This document shows positions 1,500 through 52,475 of a stretch of DNA of 64,000 bases, piece by piece. The notes under the pieces were generated by a model that saw nothing but the letters and a program-made list of their open reading frames with translations, did not search any database and was not told where the DNA came from. This stretch comes from a virus (taxonomy: Duplodnaviria > Caudoviricetes), in IMG/VR virus record IMGVR_UViG_3300005282_000001, positions 1 to 64,000 of that record; one strand, given 5' to 3'. How positions within the stretch are numbered: position 1 is the first letter of the stretch; each line of letters starts with the position of its first letter. Position numbers and translations under genes: made by a program.

Positions 1500-1588
1500 G
1501 TGTTTTTCTCAACAATTACATCACAATTCCATTCGCTTCCTTATATAATACACAAGAAAATTCACTAGAAAACTTTTGAATCTTTTGC

Positions 1589-1617
1589 TTGACATTGGTA
1601 CCTATATATGCTATTAT
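1589..1617 (+). promoter_or_regulatory. Early promoter P1
   Basis: TTGACA-17 bp-TATTAT with extended -10 TG. Confidence 0.8.
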
Positions 1618-1670
1618 AAGTACATAAGATAAATCAACAGAAAAACCGATGACATCGAAGAAAATAACTG

Positions 1671-1699
1671 TTGACATCTTATGTACCATATGATATAAT
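1671..1699 (+). promoter_or_regulatory. Early promoter P2 (perfect consensus)
   Basis: TTGACA-17 bp-TATAAT with extended -10 TG. Confidence 0.9.
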
Positions 1700-1749
1700 A
1701 AAGACAGTCAAAGAGATACAATAAAAACAAATGAAAGCGAGTGAATTGT

Positions 1750-1989
1750 ATGAAACCAGAAGAAATGACTTACAGACAATTGTATACTAATAGAAAGCGT
1801 AAAGACGTTCAAGAGTATATCGAACGGATTACAGAAAGAAGCACAACAGCAGCAGATGGATCATTAGTTTTTCATATTTTGCTTGATGGTAAAATAATTG
1901 TATCTACTAATCTTCCTAGCAAAGCAGAAAAGGGGTACAATAGTTACGTAAGAGAACAACGAATAAACAAAAGAACCTGTCGAAACTAG
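1750..1989 (+). CDS. Hypothetical early protein
   Basis: First ORF after P1/P2; start uncertain (1741, 1750 or 1765); stop TAG lies in hammerhead stem III. Confidence 0.65.
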   Translation: MKPEEMTYRQLYTNRKRKDVQEYIERITERSTTAADGSLVFHILLDGKIIVSTNLPSKAEKGYNSYVREQRINKRTCRN

Positions 1990-2054
1990 GGCTAATCCCC
2001 TAGTCTACCGTTGAGTGGTCCTCACGGTGCTGATGAGACAAACTGAGGTGGCCA
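1975..2054 (+). ncRNA. Hammerhead ribozyme, type II
   Basis: Stem II TGTC(1978-81)/GACA(2037-40); GAAA 1982-85; stem III CTAGGG/CCCTAG; GUC triplet 2003-05; stem I TACCG/CGGTG plus TGAG/CTCA; core CTGATGA 2030-36; loop I TGGTC can pair with GGCCA (2050-54). Confidence 0.9.
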
Positions 2055-2086
2055 GGGATACGCTGGCACTCACAAGGAGATACATC

Positions 2087-2422
2087 ATAAAACAAAAGTA
2101 TACTTATAAAGCCATTCGCAACATGGGATTACCAGTGCTTGCCATTGGATACTGCGACTTACAAACGTTATTCCCTGAAACAGATGCATTCGGATATTCG
2201 TCAGGAACTAATGGTTGGAACTGTAATTATCATAGGACCTATGGGGGAAGCAGAGCCATTGTAAGCACTGGATATCGTCCAATAGGGACAACGGTTCCCC
2301 GTGATATTGTGAAGAAATACGAAGCAAAAGCAAGGGAACTTCCTACAAGCTTATCTTTTGATCGTATAGAGAAACTTTGTGAGTTACAAAAGGACTTCAT
2401 AGTAGAAGCATTAGCCGTCTGA
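2087..2422 (+). CDS. Conserved-looking phage hypothetical protein (GYCxLQ...GWN...STGYRP motifs), bracketed by ribozymes
   Basis: ORF-track frame 2015-2422; the best SD AAGGAG (2074-79) points to ATA at 2087; stop TGA is part of the second hammerhead core. Confidence 0.75.
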   Translation: MKQKYTYKAIRNMGLPVLAIGYCDLQTLFPETDAFGYSSGTNGWNCNYHRTYGGSRAIVSTGYRPIGTTVPRDIVKKYEAKARELPTSLSFDRIEKLCELQKDFIVEALAV

Positions 2423-2472
2423 AGAGTCGCTGAGAATTGCGACGAAACGCCTTCGGGCGTCACGGCAACTGC
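2408..2472 (+). ncRNA. Hammerhead ribozyme, type I
   Basis: GCCGT-CTGAAGA-GTCGC-TGAGAATT-GCGAC-GAAA-CGCC-TTCG-GGCG-TC-ACGGC: all core nucleotides and three stems present; predicted cleavage after C2461. Confidence 0.93.
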
Positions 2473-2593
2473 ACACGTTTCCTTCGATCCTTGGGTGCAC
2501 CGAGGAGATGACAAGGGGTACAAGCGGAATCCAGCAGAGGAGCCGACGGATAAAAACAGAGGAATTCTGCTGGATAGCCTAAGAATACAATAG

Positions 2594-2632
2594 CGGTTAC
2601 ACAAAATGTAACGGGCGACTGAAGGGAGTAGG
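2594..2632 (+). repeat. Double-hairpin/RBS element, copy 1
   Basis: CG-GTTACAC-AAA-ATGTAAC-GGG-CGACTGAAGGGAG. Confidence 0.8.
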
Positions 2633-2641
2633 AAATTACCT

Positions 2642-2767
2642 ATGATTAACTCAAAATACCTTGTCAAGCTTCAGATTTTACTCAGCACGAAACGCATAAT
2701 CCGCAAGGGAATGCAAGTGGATACGTCAGAATTCAATGAGGTACAGCAGAAATGGCTAAGAAGCTAA
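2642..2767 (+). CDS. Small hypothetical protein (41 aa)
   Basis: Hand-translated MINSKYLVKLQILL...; SD-like site provided by element copy 1. Confidence 0.5.
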   Translation: MINSKYLVKLQILLSTKRIIRKGMQVDTSEFNEVQQKWLRS

Positions 2768-2779
2768 TGATGCTTGCGG

Positions 2780-2788
2780 TGCTATAAT
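2780..2788 (+). promoter_or_regulatory. Possible extended -10 promoter
   Basis: TG-C-TATAAT upstream of ORF 2812; no good -35. Confidence 0.4.
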
Positions 2789-2811
2789 ATATTACGAGGA
2801 GATGTATTGGT

Positions 2812-3642
2812 ATGGTAAAAGGATATAAGGTATTTAACAGTGACTGGACGTGTAGAGATGGTTTTAAGTACAAGGTGGGGGAAACGTATACCCAAGATGG
2901 AAAACTGGAGGTTTGCGGCAATGGATTGCACTTCTGCAAAAAGGCCGTTGATTGCTTTAATTATTATAGTTTTGATTCTTCAAATCATGTTGCTGAAGTG
3001 GTTGCCTATGGGAAAATAGCAGAACAGGGTGATAAATGTTGTACAAATAAACTAAAGGTTGTTGGGGAAATTTCGTGGCAGGAGGTATTAAACTTAGTCA
3101 ACACAGGAGACGACAACACAGGCTACCGCAACACAGGTAGCTTCAACACAGGTAACTTCAACACAGGCTACCGCAACACAGGTAACTTCAACACAGGTGA
3201 CCGCAACACAGGAGACGATAACACAGGTAACTTCAACACAGGTAACCGCAACACAGGCTACTTCAACACAGGTAACCGCAACACAGGTGATTGCAATATT
3301 TCAAACCATGAAACTGGAGTTTTTTGCACAGAAGAACATAAGATTCGTATATTCGATATTGAATCGGATATTACTTTTGAAGAATGGAGAGATTCCAGGG
3401 CATATTGGATATTATCTAAAGTGCTACTAATAGAGTGGGTTGAAGAGTATAGTATGACAGACGGAGAAAAAAGCAAACACCTAGAGTATAAAACTACTGG
3501 AGGGTATTTAAAGAAAGTTGATTTATTTTCTGCTTATGCTGCATGGTGGAAAAATCTTAGCGATGCTGACAAGAGTACCATTAAATCTATCCCAAACTTT
3601 AACTCTAAGAAATTTAAGATAATCACTGGAATCGAAGTATAG
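2812..3642 (+). CDS. Pentapeptide (NTGxx) repeat protein
   Basis: 13 tandem NTGxx units; GAGGAG SD. Confidence 0.85.
   Translation: MVKGYKVFNSDWTCRDGFKYKVGETYTQDGKLEVCGNGLHFCKKAVDCFNYYSFDSSNHVAEVVAYGKIAEQGDKCCTNKLKVVGEISWQEVLNLVNTGDDNTGYRNTGSFNTGNFNTGYRNTGNFNTGDRNTGDDNTGNFNTGNRNTGYFNTGNRNTGDCNISNHETGVFCTEEHKIRIFDIESDITFEEWRDSRAYWILSKVLLIEWVEEYSMTDGEKSKHLEYKTTGGYLKKVDLFSAYAAWWKNLSDADKSTIKSIPNFNSKKFKIITGIEV
3100..3294 (+). repeat. 15-bp coding tandem repeat x13
   Basis: AACACAGGnnnnnnn units encoding NTGxx. Confidence 0.95.
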
Positions 3643-3666
3643 CTATATGATTTAGGAGGAATACTA

Positions 3667-3801
3667 ATGAAACCATCACAAGAGTGCAAGAGTCACAATG
3701 AGTATTGCCAAGGTTGCCCTTATACAACAGAACACGGAGGATGTACCGCTGGGCAACCTTGGAAGCACAAACTTACAGTTGTGGACGGTGGACGCAAATG
3801 A
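3667..3801 (+). CDS. Small Cys-rich hypothetical protein (44 aa)
   Basis: AGGAGG SD; C..CxxCPY..C; ATGA overlap with the next gene. Confidence 0.6.
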   Translation: MKPSQECKSHNEYCQGCPYTTEHGGCTAGQPWKHKLTVVDGGRK

Positions 3802-3962
3802 TATACTTAGTAATTGCAGAGGTAGTACTTGCGTTAGTTGTATGGAAACTCGTAAGAAATTCCCCTTCAGGACTTAGGGCAGCAGATGGAATAATCCTTG
3901 GGTTATTTTTAAGTTCAATCATATGGATCGGAGGTGTTATCTTGTGGAAATTCTTGAATTAA
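3798..3962 (+). CDS. Small membrane protein (2 TM)
   Basis: 3' part of track ORF 3705-3962; two hydrophobic stretches; ATGA overlap. Confidence 0.65.
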   Translation: MIYLVIAEVVLALVVWKLVRNSPSGLRAADGIILGLFLSSIIWIGGVILWKFLN

Positions 3963-4016
3963 TCTTAGGACTCTATTGTTATCCAAAATATTACATCATA
4001 GGAGGTCGTAAGTATT

Positions 4017-4196
4017 ATGCTTGATGATAAACTTAATGAGTTCGAAAGTATCCCATGTTATACAGTAGGTAGGCACTCGTATATCTCAGAGGACTTCCTA
4101 CAATTTCCAGCAGGTACCAAGCGTCACACAGTGATGCAGTGGTTTGCTGATGAGTATCGTAAGAATCTATTGAATAACGGGGGTATATTGTTATGA
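4017..4196 (+). CDS. Hypothetical protein (59 aa)
   Basis: AGGAGG SD; hand-translated MLDDKLNEFESIPC... Confidence 0.6.
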   Translation: MLDDKLNEFESIPCYTVGRHSYISEDFLQFPAGTKRHTVMQWFADEYRKNLLNNGGILL

Positions 4197-4366
4197 TATT
4201 CTATGTTACTGTACATGATCCCGAGGTAAACTTCGTGAACGAATCCGAGTGTGCTCATAAGTTATTCGAGGAGATACGCAAGGTATTACCATACAAATCT
4301 TTTGATATCCGTAGGAAACCAGAGGAAGACCCTGTGTTACAATGGAACGGAGGGAATAACCAATGA
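4193..4366 (+). CDS. Hypothetical protein (57 aa)
   Basis: ATGA overlaps at both ends; hand-translated MIFYVTVHDPEV... Confidence 0.55.
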   Translation: MIFYVTVHDPEVNFVNESECAHKLFEEIRKVLPYKSFDIRRKPEEDPVLQWNGGNNQ

Positions 4367-4414
4367 TTCATATGATTGGTGCGCTGGCTCTTTGGTTACT
4401 CTGTAGAAAATAAT

Positions 4415-4455
4415 CGGTTACGCAAGGCGTAACGGGTGAACAAAGTGAACAGGAG
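4415..4455 (+). repeat. Double-hairpin/RBS element, copy 2
   Basis: CG-GTTACGC-AAG-GCGTAAC-GGG-TGAACAAAGTGAA-CAGGAG. Confidence 0.9.
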
Positions 4456-4665
4456 ATGGTACAAATGTTAACAATAGGAACAAAAGTAAAAATATTAGGA
4501 ACTACAACACCATGGCTTAAGGGCACAATAGGAACAGTAGGTGTTGTATCGAAGATCAGTAGAAAAGACGAAAAAGGCCAGTGGTATCTTGTAGAACTTC
4601 CTTATATTATCATGGGGGACAACAAGTGGTATTATGTTGAGCCAAAACTGGAGGAATACAAATGA
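4456..4665 (+). CDS. Hypothetical protein (KOW/SH3-like)
   Basis: IGTKVKI...GTIGTV pattern; start may be 4465. Confidence 0.65.
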   Translation: MVQMLTIGTKVKILGTTTPWLKGTIGTVGVVSKISRKDEKGQWYLVELPYIIMGDNKWYYVEPKLEEYK

Positions 4666-5051
4666 TTACTAAAGAAATGGAAGAGATTATCGTGGGATAC
4701 AACGGAATACTTAAGAATCTAGAGAATGACATAAGAAGCACCGAGGCTAAACTTAAGCATAACCACTTGAAAACTGTTGACTTGATGCACGAGGCTGACC
4801 CTAGAAATCACATTGAGGGGATGCCTAGGAAACGTAAGGTAGACTCAAGAATCGCCATGTCACTTGGGTTAAAACTCAAGGAACTTGCAATGGAACATAG
4901 GGACCTTAAGGATGAACTAGAGTTGCTCAAGGTAATCCAGCAGCAATTTCCTGAGAACTCCAAAGGTAAGACAGCGGTATCTAATGTATCCTCGTTTGTA
5001 CAGTGCGGGAAAACTAGAAAATACACAAGAAGAGTGGAGGAAAACAAATGA
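4662..5051 (+). CDS. Hypothetical coiled-coil protein
   Basis: GGAGG SD, ATGA overlaps. Confidence 0.7.
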   Translation: MITKEMEEIIVGYNGILKNLENDIRSTEAKLKHNHLKTVDLMHEADPRNHIEGMPRKRKVDSRIAMSLGLKLKELAMEHRDLKDELELLKVIQQQFPENSKGKTAVSNVSSFVQCGKTRKYTRRVEENK

Positions 5052-5482
5052 ACACAACGCTAAGCATCAGAAACCACACGTACACCTGCGACATCTCAGA
5101 ATCCGGCAAGACTACCTTTGAGCACTATGGGGAATTCATGAAGTATATCCATGACATTATCCAAGAATTACAAGAGGATTTTCCAGCGTTATTTCCTGAG
5201 AAACCTCAGCCGAAACTTCCGCTTGCTATTGGAATCCACAAGGAACTTGCAACGTGGGCTCAGGTACTAGGGGTATCCAAAAGGAACTTAGGTATTGCGT
5301 TAGGTAGCTGGACAAAAGGTAAGAGGTACCAGGCGGCCCTCAAGGTAGGCAAGGAGTTAAACATAAGATTTGGCGTTGGGTACCGTAAGAATGTCGTGAG
5401 CGTTCATCCGTATAACAAAAGAGATAAACGGTTGCGTAAGACGCAACGGGCGACCGAAGGGAAGCAGGAGGAAGACAAATGA
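5048..5482 (+). CDS. ProQ/FinO-family RNA-binding domain protein
   Basis: FPALF..PLAIGIHKEL...SKRNLGIALGSWT...RYQAAL..G..R resembles the ProQ/FinO consensus (FP.cF..PLKiGI...lr.AL..yt...rYL). Confidence 0.7.
   Translation: MNTTLSIRNHTYTCDISESGKTTFEHYGEFMKYIHDIIQELQEDFPALFPEKPQPKLPLAIGIHKELATWAQVLGVSKRNLGIALGSWTKGKRYQAALKVGKELNIRFGVGYRKNVVSVHPYNKRDKRLRKTQRATEGKQEEDK
5429..5471 (+). repeat. Double-hairpin/RBS element, copy 3
   Basis: CG-GTTGCGT-AAG-ACGCAAC-GGG-CGACCGAAGGGAAG-CAGGAGG; compensatory changes relative to copy 2. Confidence 0.9.
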
Positions 5483-5691
5483 ATGTCTTAAATAGACTTA
5501 TTTACGACCTTGAGGAACATCACAAGTACACCAAGGTACAGCTCAACTGTATTCTATATGGTTCCAATGAATATCATCACAAAGGCAAGGTAGTACTTGC
5601 GGAAGTCTATGAGATTACCTATAGGAACCATGTGTTAGCCATTGGGGACGAAAGATTTGGCGTGTACGAGGGGTACTATCGAGTCTTATGA
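5479..5691 (+). CDS. Hypothetical protein
   Basis: AGGAGG SD from element copy 3. Confidence 0.7.
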   Translation: MNVLNRLIYDLEEHHKYTKVQLNCILYGSNEYHHKGKVVLAEVYEITYRNHVLAIGDERFGVYEGYYRVL

Positions 5692-5722
5692 GTCCTTAGC
5701 AGCTCTAAAGTAAAATTTAGGG

Positions 5723-5751
5723 TTGCAATAGAATCCATAAGGTAGTACAAT
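5723..5751 (+). promoter_or_regulatory. Putative sigma-A promoter upstream of the recombinase operon
   Basis: TTGCAA-17 bp-TACAAT. Confidence 0.55.
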
Positions 5752-5762
5752 ACGAATAAGGG

Positions 5763-5954
5763 GTGAAACAGATGGATAAGCTTGAAAGAATGCTAGAGAA
5801 ACAAAAGAATAACGCTAGGAATTTCGATAGACAAATTAAGGAAATCATTAGTGGAACTAGAGTAAGTATTGACGATGAACTTTTGGAATCTATAGATAAA
5901 CAATACTTAGCAATAGAACACTATAGAGAAGGAATGAGTCGCTATGGACACTAA
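5763..5954 (+). CDS. Hypothetical protein
   Basis: ORF track; lies in the operon direction. Confidence 0.6.
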   Translation: MKQMDKLERMLEKQKNNARNFDRQIKEIISGTRVSIDDELLESIDKQYLAIEHYREGMSRYGH

Positions 5955-32655: not shown

Positions 32656-33269
32656 ACAACTATCAGTTACTACAGAACTTACATGAGAGAAACATAAGAG
32701 TTACCAACGCTTACTGCTACGATCTTGCGAATTCCCTTGTCAGCAGCGGCTACCCTATGTTAACCAAAGTAGTTCCACGGGATGCCAATGAATCCGATGT
32801 GAAACGTGCGGTTAAACTTGCGAATACACCAGTAGGCAGTGGACACAACAATTTCCTCTGTGGGATTCGCGTGAGCTTTGACTTGACGGTTCCACGGTAC
32901 ATCTGGCAGGAAGCACAACGGTACCATTGGTTTGACATTGTGAGTTCCCAAAGCACCATGCATAAGATAACTGAGATGGACTTGTGGGCTGATGATTTTA
33001 CTGATGATACTCCATCTGCTTCTGTAGATATCCTCAAGAAGAAACAAAAGGAATATGTTAAAGATAATACAGAAAGAAACTTTAGAAAGCTCAAGAGTTC
33101 AATCCCAGAGGGACTTCTGTTGACCGCAAGGATTTCCACGAACTATCAGCAGTTACGCACTATTTTTACCCAGAGAGTAGTTTGTAAGCATAGACTTAAA
33201 GAATGGGAATATTTTGGAGAATGGATAAGGGGGCTGCCTATGTCTAGGGAGTTAATCACTAATGAATGA
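32652..33269 (+). CDS. ThyX-like flavin-dependent thymidylate synthase
   Basis: FDLTVPRYIWQEAQRYH..IVSSQST, IPEG....ISTNY..LR.IF.QR...HRL.EW; degenerate RHRxxSxxxxSxR signature; nucleotide-metabolism context. Confidence 0.55.
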   Translation: MNNYQLLQNLHERNIRVTNAYCYDLANSLVSSGYPMLTKVVPRDANESDVKRAVKLANTPVGSGHNNFLCGIRVSFDLTVPRYIWQEAQRYHWFDIVSSQSTMHKITEMDLWADDFTDDTPSASVDILKKKQKEYVKDNTERNFRKLKSSIPEGLLLTARISTNYQQLRTIFTQRVVCKHRLKEWEYFGEWIRGLPMSRELITNE

Positions 33270-49700: not shown

Positions 49701-52475
49701 TGTGAGTTGCTTTTCAGTTTCCTGTTGATTCTCTACAGCTTTATTGTATTTTTCAGTTCCCTCAGCAGATCCACTAATTTGCTCTTGTAATTTCTGATGA
49801 GCACCCATGAGAGCATCTGTAAATTCCGATTGCTTCTCAAGTTGCTGCTGTTGTTGCTGAGCTACCGCTATAGCATCTGTAGCTTGTCTATTGGCTTCCC
49901 TTTGAGCATTCGCATGAGAACCAATAGCTTCCGTAGCAATAATCGTAACAGCCGCTAGAGCAGTTAATGTAGCTCCTAGTGGAGTTGCACGGGATGCCAA
50001 AGAAGCAATATTGGTAGCTGTGATGGCGTTCTTGAGTACTATGAATCCCTTTGCAGCAATAGCAAGCCCACCAGCGGCTTCTACAGACCACGCTGGTATT
50101 TCCTTGAGTCCTGTTACGAAATTGTCGACACCACTTATGGTATCCTTTAGGACACCTGTGATACCTGCATTACCTCCAGCAACACTCAAGGACAACATAT
50201 CAGTCTTAAGAGTTTGCAAGCGGCGACTGATGGTATCCAGTTGCATCCCCACCTGTTTATCTGTGAAACCTATGGAGTTCACTGCTTCTCCCCACGTTCT
50301 GATGAATTCCTTATAGTCACCCAAGGTTGCCCCAGCTTTAGACCACTGGAGCTTACCTCCTGCGAGTTGCTTATAGGTTTCCTCAAGTGATTGATTAGTC
50401 CCTTGCGTGGCTACTGCTAAATCCAACATTACATCTTGAGCCTTACGGAATTGTTTGGAGCCATCCTCGCCAATTTTGTAGACGGATACCCCAAGTTTGT
50501 CAAGTTCCGCAATGGCTTTATCGCTATGGAATGAACCATAGAGTGTTTTGAGCATATTCATATTGTTACTCCTCATGTTTCCATGAGTGGCACAGTCATT
50601 TCTGCTGTACTCTTGCGCTTCTCTTAAGTTATACGCAAGATCGGACTGTATATTTATCCCGTAGGGATAAGGGGTTTCAGTCTCTCGGAGGTACTATAGT
50701 TTCCCATAGTATTTCTCACGGTCTTGCCCACTGCTGGCTTTTAACCGTTATCGTCCCTAGTTTCATAACACATTGCTGTGCTAAGCGGCAAGTTTAAGTC
50801 TACCGATTTCTGCCCCCGAGCGGCCTGTAGCACGTACACCAGTAGCCACCTGAGCACTTAAGAACTCAAAGTCTGTACCAGTCTGATGCGCTGCGGACCC
50901 TGCTCGTTCAACACCTTGTGATAAATCTTGTGCTGATGCACCACCGTTATGCGCTAGTTTTGTCCACACGTCTATGATAGTTCCCGAGTATGCTAATGCT
51001 TCCGTTACGTTTTTCGCAGTCATTCCAAACTGGAACATTGCGGATTCTGCGGCTTTGTTCGCATCGACCATACTAAAGTTATCCGCAACAGCTAACTTAG
51101 CGGATTGTGCAGTTAGTGCATTGACAATATTGATATCCTTGTAAGTTCTCAAAATTGTTACTCTCATATTTCTATGGGAGGTACAGTCATTTCTGCTGTA
51201 CTCTACCGCTTAACTAGAGGGAACATACGGTAGTTCGGACTGTATATTCTTCCCATAAGGAAGGACCTATGTCAGTCTCTCGGGGTTCTATAGGATACTA
51301 TAGATTTCCCACGGTCTTGGCGATCCCCATCGCTTTTAACCGTTATAAAGGTCTTTTTATGCCACAAGTTTCCATGTGGAGGGGCAGTTTTGTTTACCCC
51401 ATAACTTACCAGATTCAATAATGTTATCAATAGATTCTCCGTACTGCGCAGATATCGTTAAGAATTTCTGTGATTCCGCATTGAGCATGTTCTGCTGTTC
51501 CGCCTGTTCACTTATACCTTTACTTGCGGCATTTGCAGCGGTATTCGTATGGTCCATCACCTGGTTCACGCCAGCCATTGCAGTATCCATTCTCTTGAGG
51601 TCATCGAAGACTTTCACAGGTAAAGCAAAAGCTGCACCAAGTAATCCACCTGCTACTATCCATGAAGCATGTGAAGCCACGCGAGCTCTCATGTTATCCC
51701 ATGCACTTGTATAGGTCCCTATAGATTTACTAAAGGACTCTTGTTCAGCCTTAGCAACTGACATACCCTTAGTGTACTTATCGAGTGCTGTGGCGTACTC
51801 TGTAGAACCAATAGCACCTCTTTGGAATGCTCTATATTGTTCCTCAATATTACTCGACAGTGTACTCATTTGTTTCGCATAAGTTGCTTGAGAACCAACT
51901 GTACCAATAGAGCTTGCTATAGCTTGCTTGGCAGCTTGAGATTCTTGTTCCTTAGCTAACTTCTGTCTTACTGTAGATTCAAAGTCTAGTACCTTCTGTC
52001 TCGCAAGCATCTCTTGCTCAGCATTAGTATTTATCCGAGAAACTTGAGAAGTGTTCATCTGTGCTTCTCTAGAAGCTGCTTGCGTCATCGCACGCTCTCT
52101 ACCGGAAGCCATTTGTTCTATGAGTTTCTGCTGGTCCGCAAGTTCCTTCGCTTGTGTTGCTGATGTCTGACTAGACATTTTCTGACGTATCTTTAGTTCT
52201 TCGTTAAGTGCTTTCTCACGGGTTCCGTAGTCACCTTGAGATATTTCAGTATTCATCTTGCGGATTTGCAACTGAATATCATTGACTAGACGCTTGAGAT
52301 CATCAGCACTCTTTATGTCACCCTGGAACATTCCACGTTGGTCTGTAGAACGCCTAGCCTGTTCATATGCTGTCTTAGTTTCGCTCAGCAGTTGCTTAAG
52401 AGATTGTACTTGAACTTTCGCTTCGTCTATCCCTTGGACAACTATTCGGTTTACTATTTGAGATTCTTCAGCCAT
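46770..52475 (-). CDS. Tape measure protein with SLT lytic transglycosylase domain; three exons (52475-51396, 51149-50802, 50558-46770), 1738 aa spliced
   Basis: Splicing restores one frame and the motifs KLWG|RTYKD and SGAEIG|NMLKT; VESG...AGAIG.MQLMP.T...YNAG (SLT). Confidence 0.92.
50559..50801 (-). mobile_element. Group I intron 2 (243 nt, no ORF) in the tape measure gene
   Basis: Exon ends CGGU pairing with IGS GCCG; P4 ACGGU/ACCGU; P7 GACUG/CAGUC with CCGAGAGACUG and AUAUACAGUCC; ends in G. Confidence 0.93.
51150..51395 (-). mobile_element. Group I intron 1 (246 nt, no ORF) in the tape measure gene
   Basis: Exon ends GGGGU pairing with IGS GCCCC; P3 GACCU/AGGUC; P4 ACGGU/ACCGU; P7 GACUG/CAGUC; ends in G. 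Confidence 0.93.

Follow-up and report, generated by a model that had tools for sequence, protein, structure and literature searches.

Can a phage use two self-cleaving ribozymes to release one gene of its earliest transcript as an RNA of its own? This question is raised by a stretch of 64,000 nucleotides (nt), hereafter the window, which is the first 64 kilobases (kb) of the IMG/VR virus record IMGVR_UViG_3300005282_000001 (Duplodnaviria; Caudoviricetes), an uncultured phage genome of 76,575 base pairs (bp) rated 100% complete by CheckV. Near its start, a type II and a type I hammerhead ribozyme motif lie on either side of a single open reading frame (ORF), and an earlier reading made from the sequence alone, here called the original prediction, had taken them for a device that excises one early gene from its operon. 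We analysed the two motifs, the gene between them and the corresponding junctions in related phages, in order to ask what the pair of ribozymes is likely to do. Positions are those of the window, the promoters, genes, ribozymes and structured RNA mapped between 1589 and 2641 lie on its + strand, and related loci are designated by L numbers.

Two hammerheads around one early gene

The upstream motif is a type II hammerhead at 1978-2045, with predicted cleavage between C2005 and U2006. Its core, made up of GAAA (1982-1985), CUGAUGA (2030-2036) and GUC (2003-2005), is canonical at every position. Stem II is formed by UGUC at 1978-1981 pairing with GACA at 2037-2040 and is open in the predicted fold, while stem III (1986-2002) and stem I (2006-2029) are hairpins closed by loops. 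The Rfam model RF02276 matched this motif over the full model with 31.1 bits (E 7e-6 in a search of the genome, 0.025 in an all-family scan of the window), and the type II copies that L006 and L008-L013 have at this junction scored 39.1-41.3 bits. The window copy shares the signature GUCGAAAC ... CUGAUGAGACAAAC with dozens of copies from viral contigs. Across 35 type II copies of the subfamily so defined, drawn from viral contigs, 14 of the 17 predicted pairs covary, rising to 18 of 22 when the known pseudoknot that links loop I to the 3′ tail is counted as well. Within the subfamily this pseudoknot is 77% paired and four of its five pairs covary; in the window, UGGU of loop I (2016-2019) and ACUG (2042-2045) could form four of the five pairs, two of them G-U.

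The downstream motif, which spans 2414-2466, is a type I hammerhead whose predicted cut falls between C2461 and A2462. Here stem I is the open one, with GCCGU (2414-2418) pairing to ACGGC (2462-2466) over 5 bp. The core elements CUGAAGA (2419-2425), GAAA (2444-2447) and GUC (2459-2461) are again canonical throughout, stem II (2426-2443) and stem III (2448-2459) form hairpins, and the minimum-free-energy fold of the sequence has the hammerhead shape. When five related type I copies were compared, 100% of the stem cells could pair, and all five pairs of stem I together with one pair of stem II had changed on both sides, compared with none in slid controls. The Rfam model RF00163 gave the window copy 17.6 bits with stem III misaligned, and it returned no match at E ≤ 1 for canonical type I copies in L002, L008-L010 and L136; the L006 copy was matched only by RF00008 (type III), at 23.5 bits. 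Loop II, UGAGAAU (window 2431-2438), is invariant in the window, L006, L008, L134 and L135, and stem I covaries completely, a pattern of substitutions that suggests a tertiary contact in this type I subfamily.

Because RF00163 also misses canonical type I copies in relatives, we wrote a strict hammerhead descriptor that requires the core, three stems and a UH cleavage site. Applied to the 76.6-kb genome, it found exactly two hammerheads, the type II and the type I described above; the shuffled control gave 0.03 matches per genome (30 shuffled genomes). Both are confirmed as genuine hammerhead motifs and as more than chance, and the sequence and the descriptor scan agree with the claim that they flank exactly one ORF, each overlapping a stop codon. 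A loose type III-like match at 32942-33082 was judged to be chance and fails the stricter stem limits used for the shuffled genomes, and a weak RF00163 match at 2529-2575 was rejected for lack of a core. Rfam at gathering thresholds gave no match in the window, and permissive searches that covered 1500-3000, the entire window and L007 380-670 detected no twister, pistol, hatchet, twister-sister, HDV-like or other family that would account for the structured RNA X or the two-hairpin element described below.

The gene bracketed by the two motifs encodes a protein of 111 amino acids (aa) at 2087-2422, with the motifs GYCDLQ, GWNC and STGYRPIG, and its stop codon UGA (2420-2422) sits inside the CUGAAGA core of the type I hammerhead. 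The first ORF of the operon, ORF1 (1750-1989; 79 aa from the ATG at 1750, or 82 aa if the GTG at 1741 is used), ends with TAG at 1987-1989, within stem III of the type II hammerhead. Alignment of homologues placed the start of the flanked ORF at 2087, seven bases after a perfect Shine-Dalgarno sequence, AAGGAG (2074-2079). The start codon at 2087-2089 is AUA in the window and AUG in three relatives, which could reflect weak initiation, recent decay or an assembly error. An in-frame AUG at 2033, within CUGAUGA, was rejected as the true start, since a 1-nt insertion in L007 shifts the frame. With the start corrected to 2087, the predicted 456-nt RNA (2006-2461) does carry the Shine-Dalgarno sequence and the whole ORF, as had been proposed.

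A consensus scan showed that the rightward operon is opened by two near-consensus sigma-70-type promoters upstream of both hammerheads. The site at 1671-1699 matches 12 of 12 consensus positions (a perfect TTGACA-17-TATAAT with an extended -10 TG), and the site at 1589-1617 matches 11 of 12 and likewise has a TG before the -10, bearing out the claim of two strong promoters just upstream. These early promoter-like sites lie about 300 nt upstream of the two-ribozyme unit, the whole of which takes up less than 1 kb.

Cassette boundaries and predicted RNA products

The original prediction had called for a search of homologous genes for flanking ribozymes. When this was done, relatives were found to keep ribozymes at the same junctions (L006, L008-L013, L140 and L166), so the outcome named there as a refutation, homologous genes without flanking ribozymes, did not arise. 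The homologue in L006 (76% aa identity) has a type II hammerhead upstream, at 39.1 bits and thus above the cut-off, and a type I downstream. At L008-L013 (54% identity; at least L010 and L011 are wastewater metagenome contigs, and L006-L014 as a set come from wastewater and gut samples) the order is type II, a 99-aa gene, type II, the homologue, type II, a 140-aa gene and type I. In the marine-type loci L140 and L166 (about 40% identity), a type I hammerhead begins at the stop codon of the homologue and a second follows the next gene. Among 47 loci of distant homologues, 11 have a hammerhead within 2 kb. The most extended array was that of L113 (IMG/VR, 36 kb), where seven type II hammerheads within 2.8 kb (2927-5792) separate six single ORFs, and where each interval holds one Shine-Dalgarno sequence, about 55 nt after the ribozyme, and one ORF.

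Comparison of the window with L006 delimits the unit precisely. Homology between window 1980-2466 and L006 232-717 begins and ends at the two ribozymes: identity is 74% in the type II hammerhead, 96% in the 47-nt leader, 78% in the ORF and 91% in the type I hammerhead, and it falls to 51% in the upstream flank and 44% in the downstream flank, compared with 52% for shuffled sequence. The leader of the flanked gene is better conserved than the ORF itself, and ORF1 shows no homology with the gene upstream of the type II ribozyme in L006. Since the homology is bounded by the two ribozymes, these bound a cassette, and to judge from the alignment the succession of ribozyme, leader, gene and ribozyme looks like a unit of mosaic exchange between phages.

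The leader has features of its own. A 5-bp hairpin, GCCAG/CUGGC (2051-2067), lies between the type II hammerhead and the Shine-Dalgarno sequence AAGGAG; a hairpin of other sequence stands at the same place in L014 (GUUGG/CCAAC) and L008 (GACGG/CCGUC), and a small hairpin before the ribosome-binding site also follows the type I ribozyme of L006. Predicted folds of the 456-nt RNA leave the Shine-Dalgarno sequence unpaired and give the 3′ end a structure; the processed 5′ end is paired from nucleotide 1 in the fold of the leader or from nucleotide 2 in the fold of the full-length RNA.

What is directly seen is a pair of motifs that are conserved and covary, that sit exactly at gene junctions and that mark the limits of a cassette; from this we infer how the unit may work in vivo. 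We favour, with moderate confidence, a reading in which active hammerheads cut the early transcript into insulated single-gene RNAs and form part of an exchangeable cassette. According to this model, the first early transcript, started at the promoters at 1589-1699, would be self-cleaved by both ribozymes during its synthesis, at 2005/2006 and 2461/2462, yielding three RNAs. The first would be the mRNA of ORF1, its 3′ end lying in the stem III hairpin and carrying a 2′,3′-cyclic phosphate. The second would be the 456-nt monocistronic mRNA, with its 5′-OH on the stem I hairpin, followed by the small hairpin and an exposed Shine-Dalgarno sequence, and with a 3′ end made up of two hairpins from the type I ribozyme, stem II and stem III, and carrying a cyclic phosphate. 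The third would be the downstream RNA, starting with a 5′-OH about 13 nt before a structured RNA, X, described below. The likely purpose would be insulation, in that each gene would receive its own leader and its own defined, hairpin-protected ends; the stability and translation of each gene would thus become independent of its neighbours, with no need for a host nuclease. The unit of ribozyme, leader, gene and ribozyme would also be exchanged between phages as a cassette. The original prediction had offered two fates for the transcript, and cutting into monocistronic units is the best-supported reading, while nothing favours the other, a circular mRNA.

Several observations count against this model. 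Both hammerheads score below the gathering cut-offs of their Rfam families (31.1 bits against 37 for RF02276 and 17.6 bits against 34 for RF00163), and the pseudoknot of the window type II copy is weaker than in most of its family. With AUA as its start, the flanked ORF may be in decay or translated poorly, at odds with a device meant to raise its expression. At 36 of the 47 distant homologue loci a hammerhead is absent within 2 kb, so the gene does not need the ribozymes. Finally, protection of the ends by a 5′-OH and terminal hairpins is an expectation drawn from the general behaviour of RNase E/J and 3′ exonucleases.

Structured RNA X and competing explanations

The type I ribozyme is followed by a previously undescribed, conserved structured RNA of about 115 nt, which we call X (approximately 2475-2590), starting about 13 nt after the cut site. 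One of the two domains of X is a nested hairpin in which GAUGACA is conserved; the other is a hairpin of 10 bp whose 27-nt loop is conserved. It occurs at the same position in L007 (473-596), L014 (447-570) and the L009 group (L009 1210-1334); in these four sequences, 9 of its 30 pairs show compensatory changes and its loops are nearly invariant. X matched no Rfam family in permissive scans, and it was not found beyond the four lineages by pattern scans of viral and genome contigs or by nhmmer and covariance-model searches of 874 kb of phage DNA. An X-like match at 49743-49860 (E 0.058) was judged fortuitous. X was rejected as a coding region, as indels of 1-2 nt break any frame, and as a tRNA, as ARAGORN detected none.

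The proximity of X to the cut site suggested an alternative model, in which the type I hammerhead mainly frees a precise 5′ end for X, acting as a leader or small RNA, and ends the mRNA of the flanked ORF only secondarily. In the L009 group, too, X comes after a type I hammerhead, there with another gene upstream of the ribozyme, and it is more conserved than the neighbouring proteins, with the compensatory changes noted above. In the predicted fold, moreover, an invariant GCC on the 3′ side of X has a potential partner in the GGC of the stem I strand that cleavage would release, a pairing that shows no covariation. However, the same type I subfamily precedes a short leader and a gene, without X, in L006, L134 and L135, and L007 and L014 carry X without a hammerhead. 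The occurrence of X without the hammerhead and of the hammerhead without X shows that the two elements are separable. We regard this alternative as unlikely, although the best placed of those considered; setting the 5′ end of X may be a further role of the type I ribozyme.

In place of the type I hammerhead, the close relatives L007 (411-485) and L014 (388-462) have, at exactly this junction, an element of about 75 nt between the end of the ORF and X. It consists of two stable hairpins, one of 13 bp with a C-A mismatch and one of 8 bp, and matched no Rfam family. It could serve as a nuclease site or, with lower probability, be a ribozyme that has gone unrecognised. The latter reading follows the published reasoning that one ribozyme class can take the place of another at sites of this kind (PMC6765202). 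In its strongest form, X would be a new functional RNA class that needs a freed 5′ end, and the two-hairpin element of L007 and L014 would be a self-cleaving motif not recognised so far; we hold this to be a long shot.

A second alternative is that the ribozymes are chiefly boundary modules of mobile cassettes. Near-identical copies would then serve as DNA recombination sites at which single genes are shuffled, deleted and duplicated, and RNA cleavage would only make each cassette self-sufficient. Several comparisons point in this direction: the homology with L006 is bounded exactly by both ribozymes, with no relation between the upstream genes; in L008 the type II copies on either side of the homologue are identical over about 66 nt; and relative to the L009 group the window lacks one whole unit of type II ribozyme and 140-aa gene. 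Perreault et al. (2011) also note that the flanked genes are not constant (PMC3088659). Against this, the stems covary strongly and the catalytic core is invariant, which shows selection on RNA catalysis and not merely on DNA identity, and no recombination event was directly observed. As the main role of the ribozymes we consider recombination somewhat less likely still than the freeing of X, and it complements the insulation model without excluding it. The L008 copies (599-664 and 1055-1120) are direct repeats, and recombination between them could delete or duplicate the gene that they flank.

It is also conceivable that one or both motifs are inactive relics and that any processing at these junctions is left to host nucleases. 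Scores below the Rfam cut-offs for both motifs, the weak pseudoknot of the type II copy, an AUA start that hints at a decaying cassette, and the non-hammerhead two-hairpin element at the type I position in L007 and L014 would fit such a history. Every core nucleotide is canonical, however, the stems are intact, and the substitutions relative to homologues are compensatory, making this explanation improbable.

The ends generated by hammerheads, a 5′-OH and a 2′,3′-cyclic phosphate, are joined by RtcB. The original prediction had tentatively linked the ribozymes to an RNA ligase and a ProQ/FinO-like protein as parts of an RNA-level control layer. Both proteins are encoded: the ORF at 21266-22135 matches RNA_ligase (PF09414) and that at 5048-5482 matches ProQ/FinO. 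ATP-dependent ligases of the PF09414 family join a 3′-OH to a 5′-phosphate, not a 2′,3′-cyclic phosphate to a 5′-OH. Because of this chemistry, the ligase could not seal hammerhead ends without end-healing, and its proposed link to the ribozymes finds no support; neither RtcB nor an AAA_33-type (PF13671) kinase was found in the phage genome. Moreover, the 5′ end of the 456-nt RNA, UACCGU, is not complementary to the stem I strand GCCGU of the type I ribozyme, and with two different ribozymes and noncomplementary ends self-ligation is not expected. That a host RtcB-type ligase joins the 456-nt RNA end to end, as a circular mRNA or regulatory RNA, is highly improbable: the end chemistry is right (PMC8782182 cites Tanaka and Shuman 2011 on such joining) and viroid and retrozyme circular RNAs arise likewise (PMC6765202, PMC7229834), but each end here is locked in the hairpin of its own ribozyme, the phage encodes no ligase of the right chemistry, the sequence reveals no evident advantage, and Perreault et al. 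looked in vain for such products, circular or spliced, from the clustered hammerheads of prophages (PMC3088659).

Known systems and neighbouring features

The original prediction had presented the locus as a candidate new system. Its kind had, however, already been described in PLoS Comput Biol by Perreault et al. 2011 (PMC3088659): multiple hammerheads flank individual genes or short gene blocks of prophages, and the triple arrangements tested there cleaved in vitro and in E. coli. They proposed processing into single-gene mRNAs and considered circular or spliced products, the ones that they did not detect. A 2019 review takes up the idea that the resulting RNAs could differ in stability or in how efficiently they are translated, and to its authors the biology of bacterial and phage hammerheads is 'largely elusive' (PMC6765202). 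In Desulfovibrio cells, cleavage has been shown for type II hammerheads next to phage-like genes (PMC8782182). With cut sites 456 nt apart on the same strand and one ORF between them, the window locus belongs to these clustered hammerheads that flank phage genes, and it is a clean new example of an arrangement known in phages since 2011. The clusters of Perreault et al. share with it hammerheads of mixed type on one strand, placed at phage gene junctions and bracketing single genes of changing identity. Relative to those clusters, the array here is minimal (two ribozymes, one gene), stands behind the first early promoters of a complete 76.6-kb genome and has both ribozymes overlapping stop codons; the present analysis also establishes where the cassette ends and ties it to one protein family, neither of which the 2011 paper does, as far as it could be read.

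The individual ribozymes also have close counterparts. The type II copy has the core of RF02276, an open stem II of 3-5 bp (GUC/GAC) and stems I and III, and differs in falling under the cut-off and in forming four of five pseudoknot pairs. Like the phage type I hammerheads of RF00163, the type I copy has a canonical core and an open 5-bp stem I and follows a stop codon ahead of the next leader; its subfamily is set apart by the invariant loop II UGAGAAU. The type I copies of the marine relatives resemble RAGATH-1-hammerhead (RF03152).

Other ways of partitioning a transcript offer partial parallels. RNase III cuts the early transcript of T7 into single-gene mRNAs and leaves a 5′-phosphate and a 3′-OH. 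In both phages a polycistronic early transcript is cut, or here predicted to be cut, at structured intercistronic sites that leave hairpins at the ends; in T7 the work is done by a protein enzyme of the host, whereas here the RNA would cut itself to give a 5′-OH and a 2′,3′-cyclic phosphate. RiboJ-type synthetic insulators, which Lou et al. are said to have introduced in 2012, reportedly place a hammerhead and a hairpin before the ribosome-binding site. They share with the window unit a ribozyme, a small hairpin and an exposed Shine-Dalgarno sequence, giving a defined 5′ end independent of upstream sequence; the window unit is natural and of type II topology, and by analogy with these constructs it may insulate its gene. 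In viroid, satellite and retrozyme RNAs, double cleavage likewise yields a unit-length RNA with ligatable ends (PMC6765202, PMC7229834). There, however, the ribozymes are repeats of one kind whose ends refold into one structure, while here the ribozymes differ, the ends mismatch and no ligase of the right chemistry is encoded.

The locus does not change the picture of what hammerheads do in bacteria and phages, but it provides a compact and favourable test case, combining two topologies, one small gene and natural variants (AUG or AUA start, a ribozyme-to-hairpin swap and a cassette with or without neighbours). The way in which homology stops at the ribozymes and the conservation of the leader above that of the gene support the idea that such ribozymes naturally insulate portable genes of phages.

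The flanked protein is one of a large family of phage proteins, comprising 1,685 clusters (50% identity) at E ≤ 0.001, nearly all of them stand-alone proteins of about 110 aa, in which GW is invariant and YC...D...TGY near-invariant. Neither the protein nor 42 relatives matched Pfam or PHROG, and the feature-atlas matches of the protein were all below 0.9 and mutually inconsistent. An AlphaFold model reached a predicted local distance difference test (pLDDT) score of 87, and its fold had no Foldseek match in the PDB (best VIA-align Z 3.5). ORF1 also matched no Pfam or PHROG family. Scans of genome contigs detected no prophage relatives, and the closest matches in cultured phages have 22-28% identity. 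Downstream of X, a hairpin element with a Shine-Dalgarno sequence (2594-2641) lies directly 5′ of the next ORF (2642-2767, 41 aa) and is also present in L007, with compensatory changes. Further on, TGCTATAAT at 2780-2788 is an extended -10-like sequence; absent from the consensus-scan list, it may be an internal promoter, and it stands just 5′ of a DUF7666/pentapeptide-repeat gene that begins at 2812.

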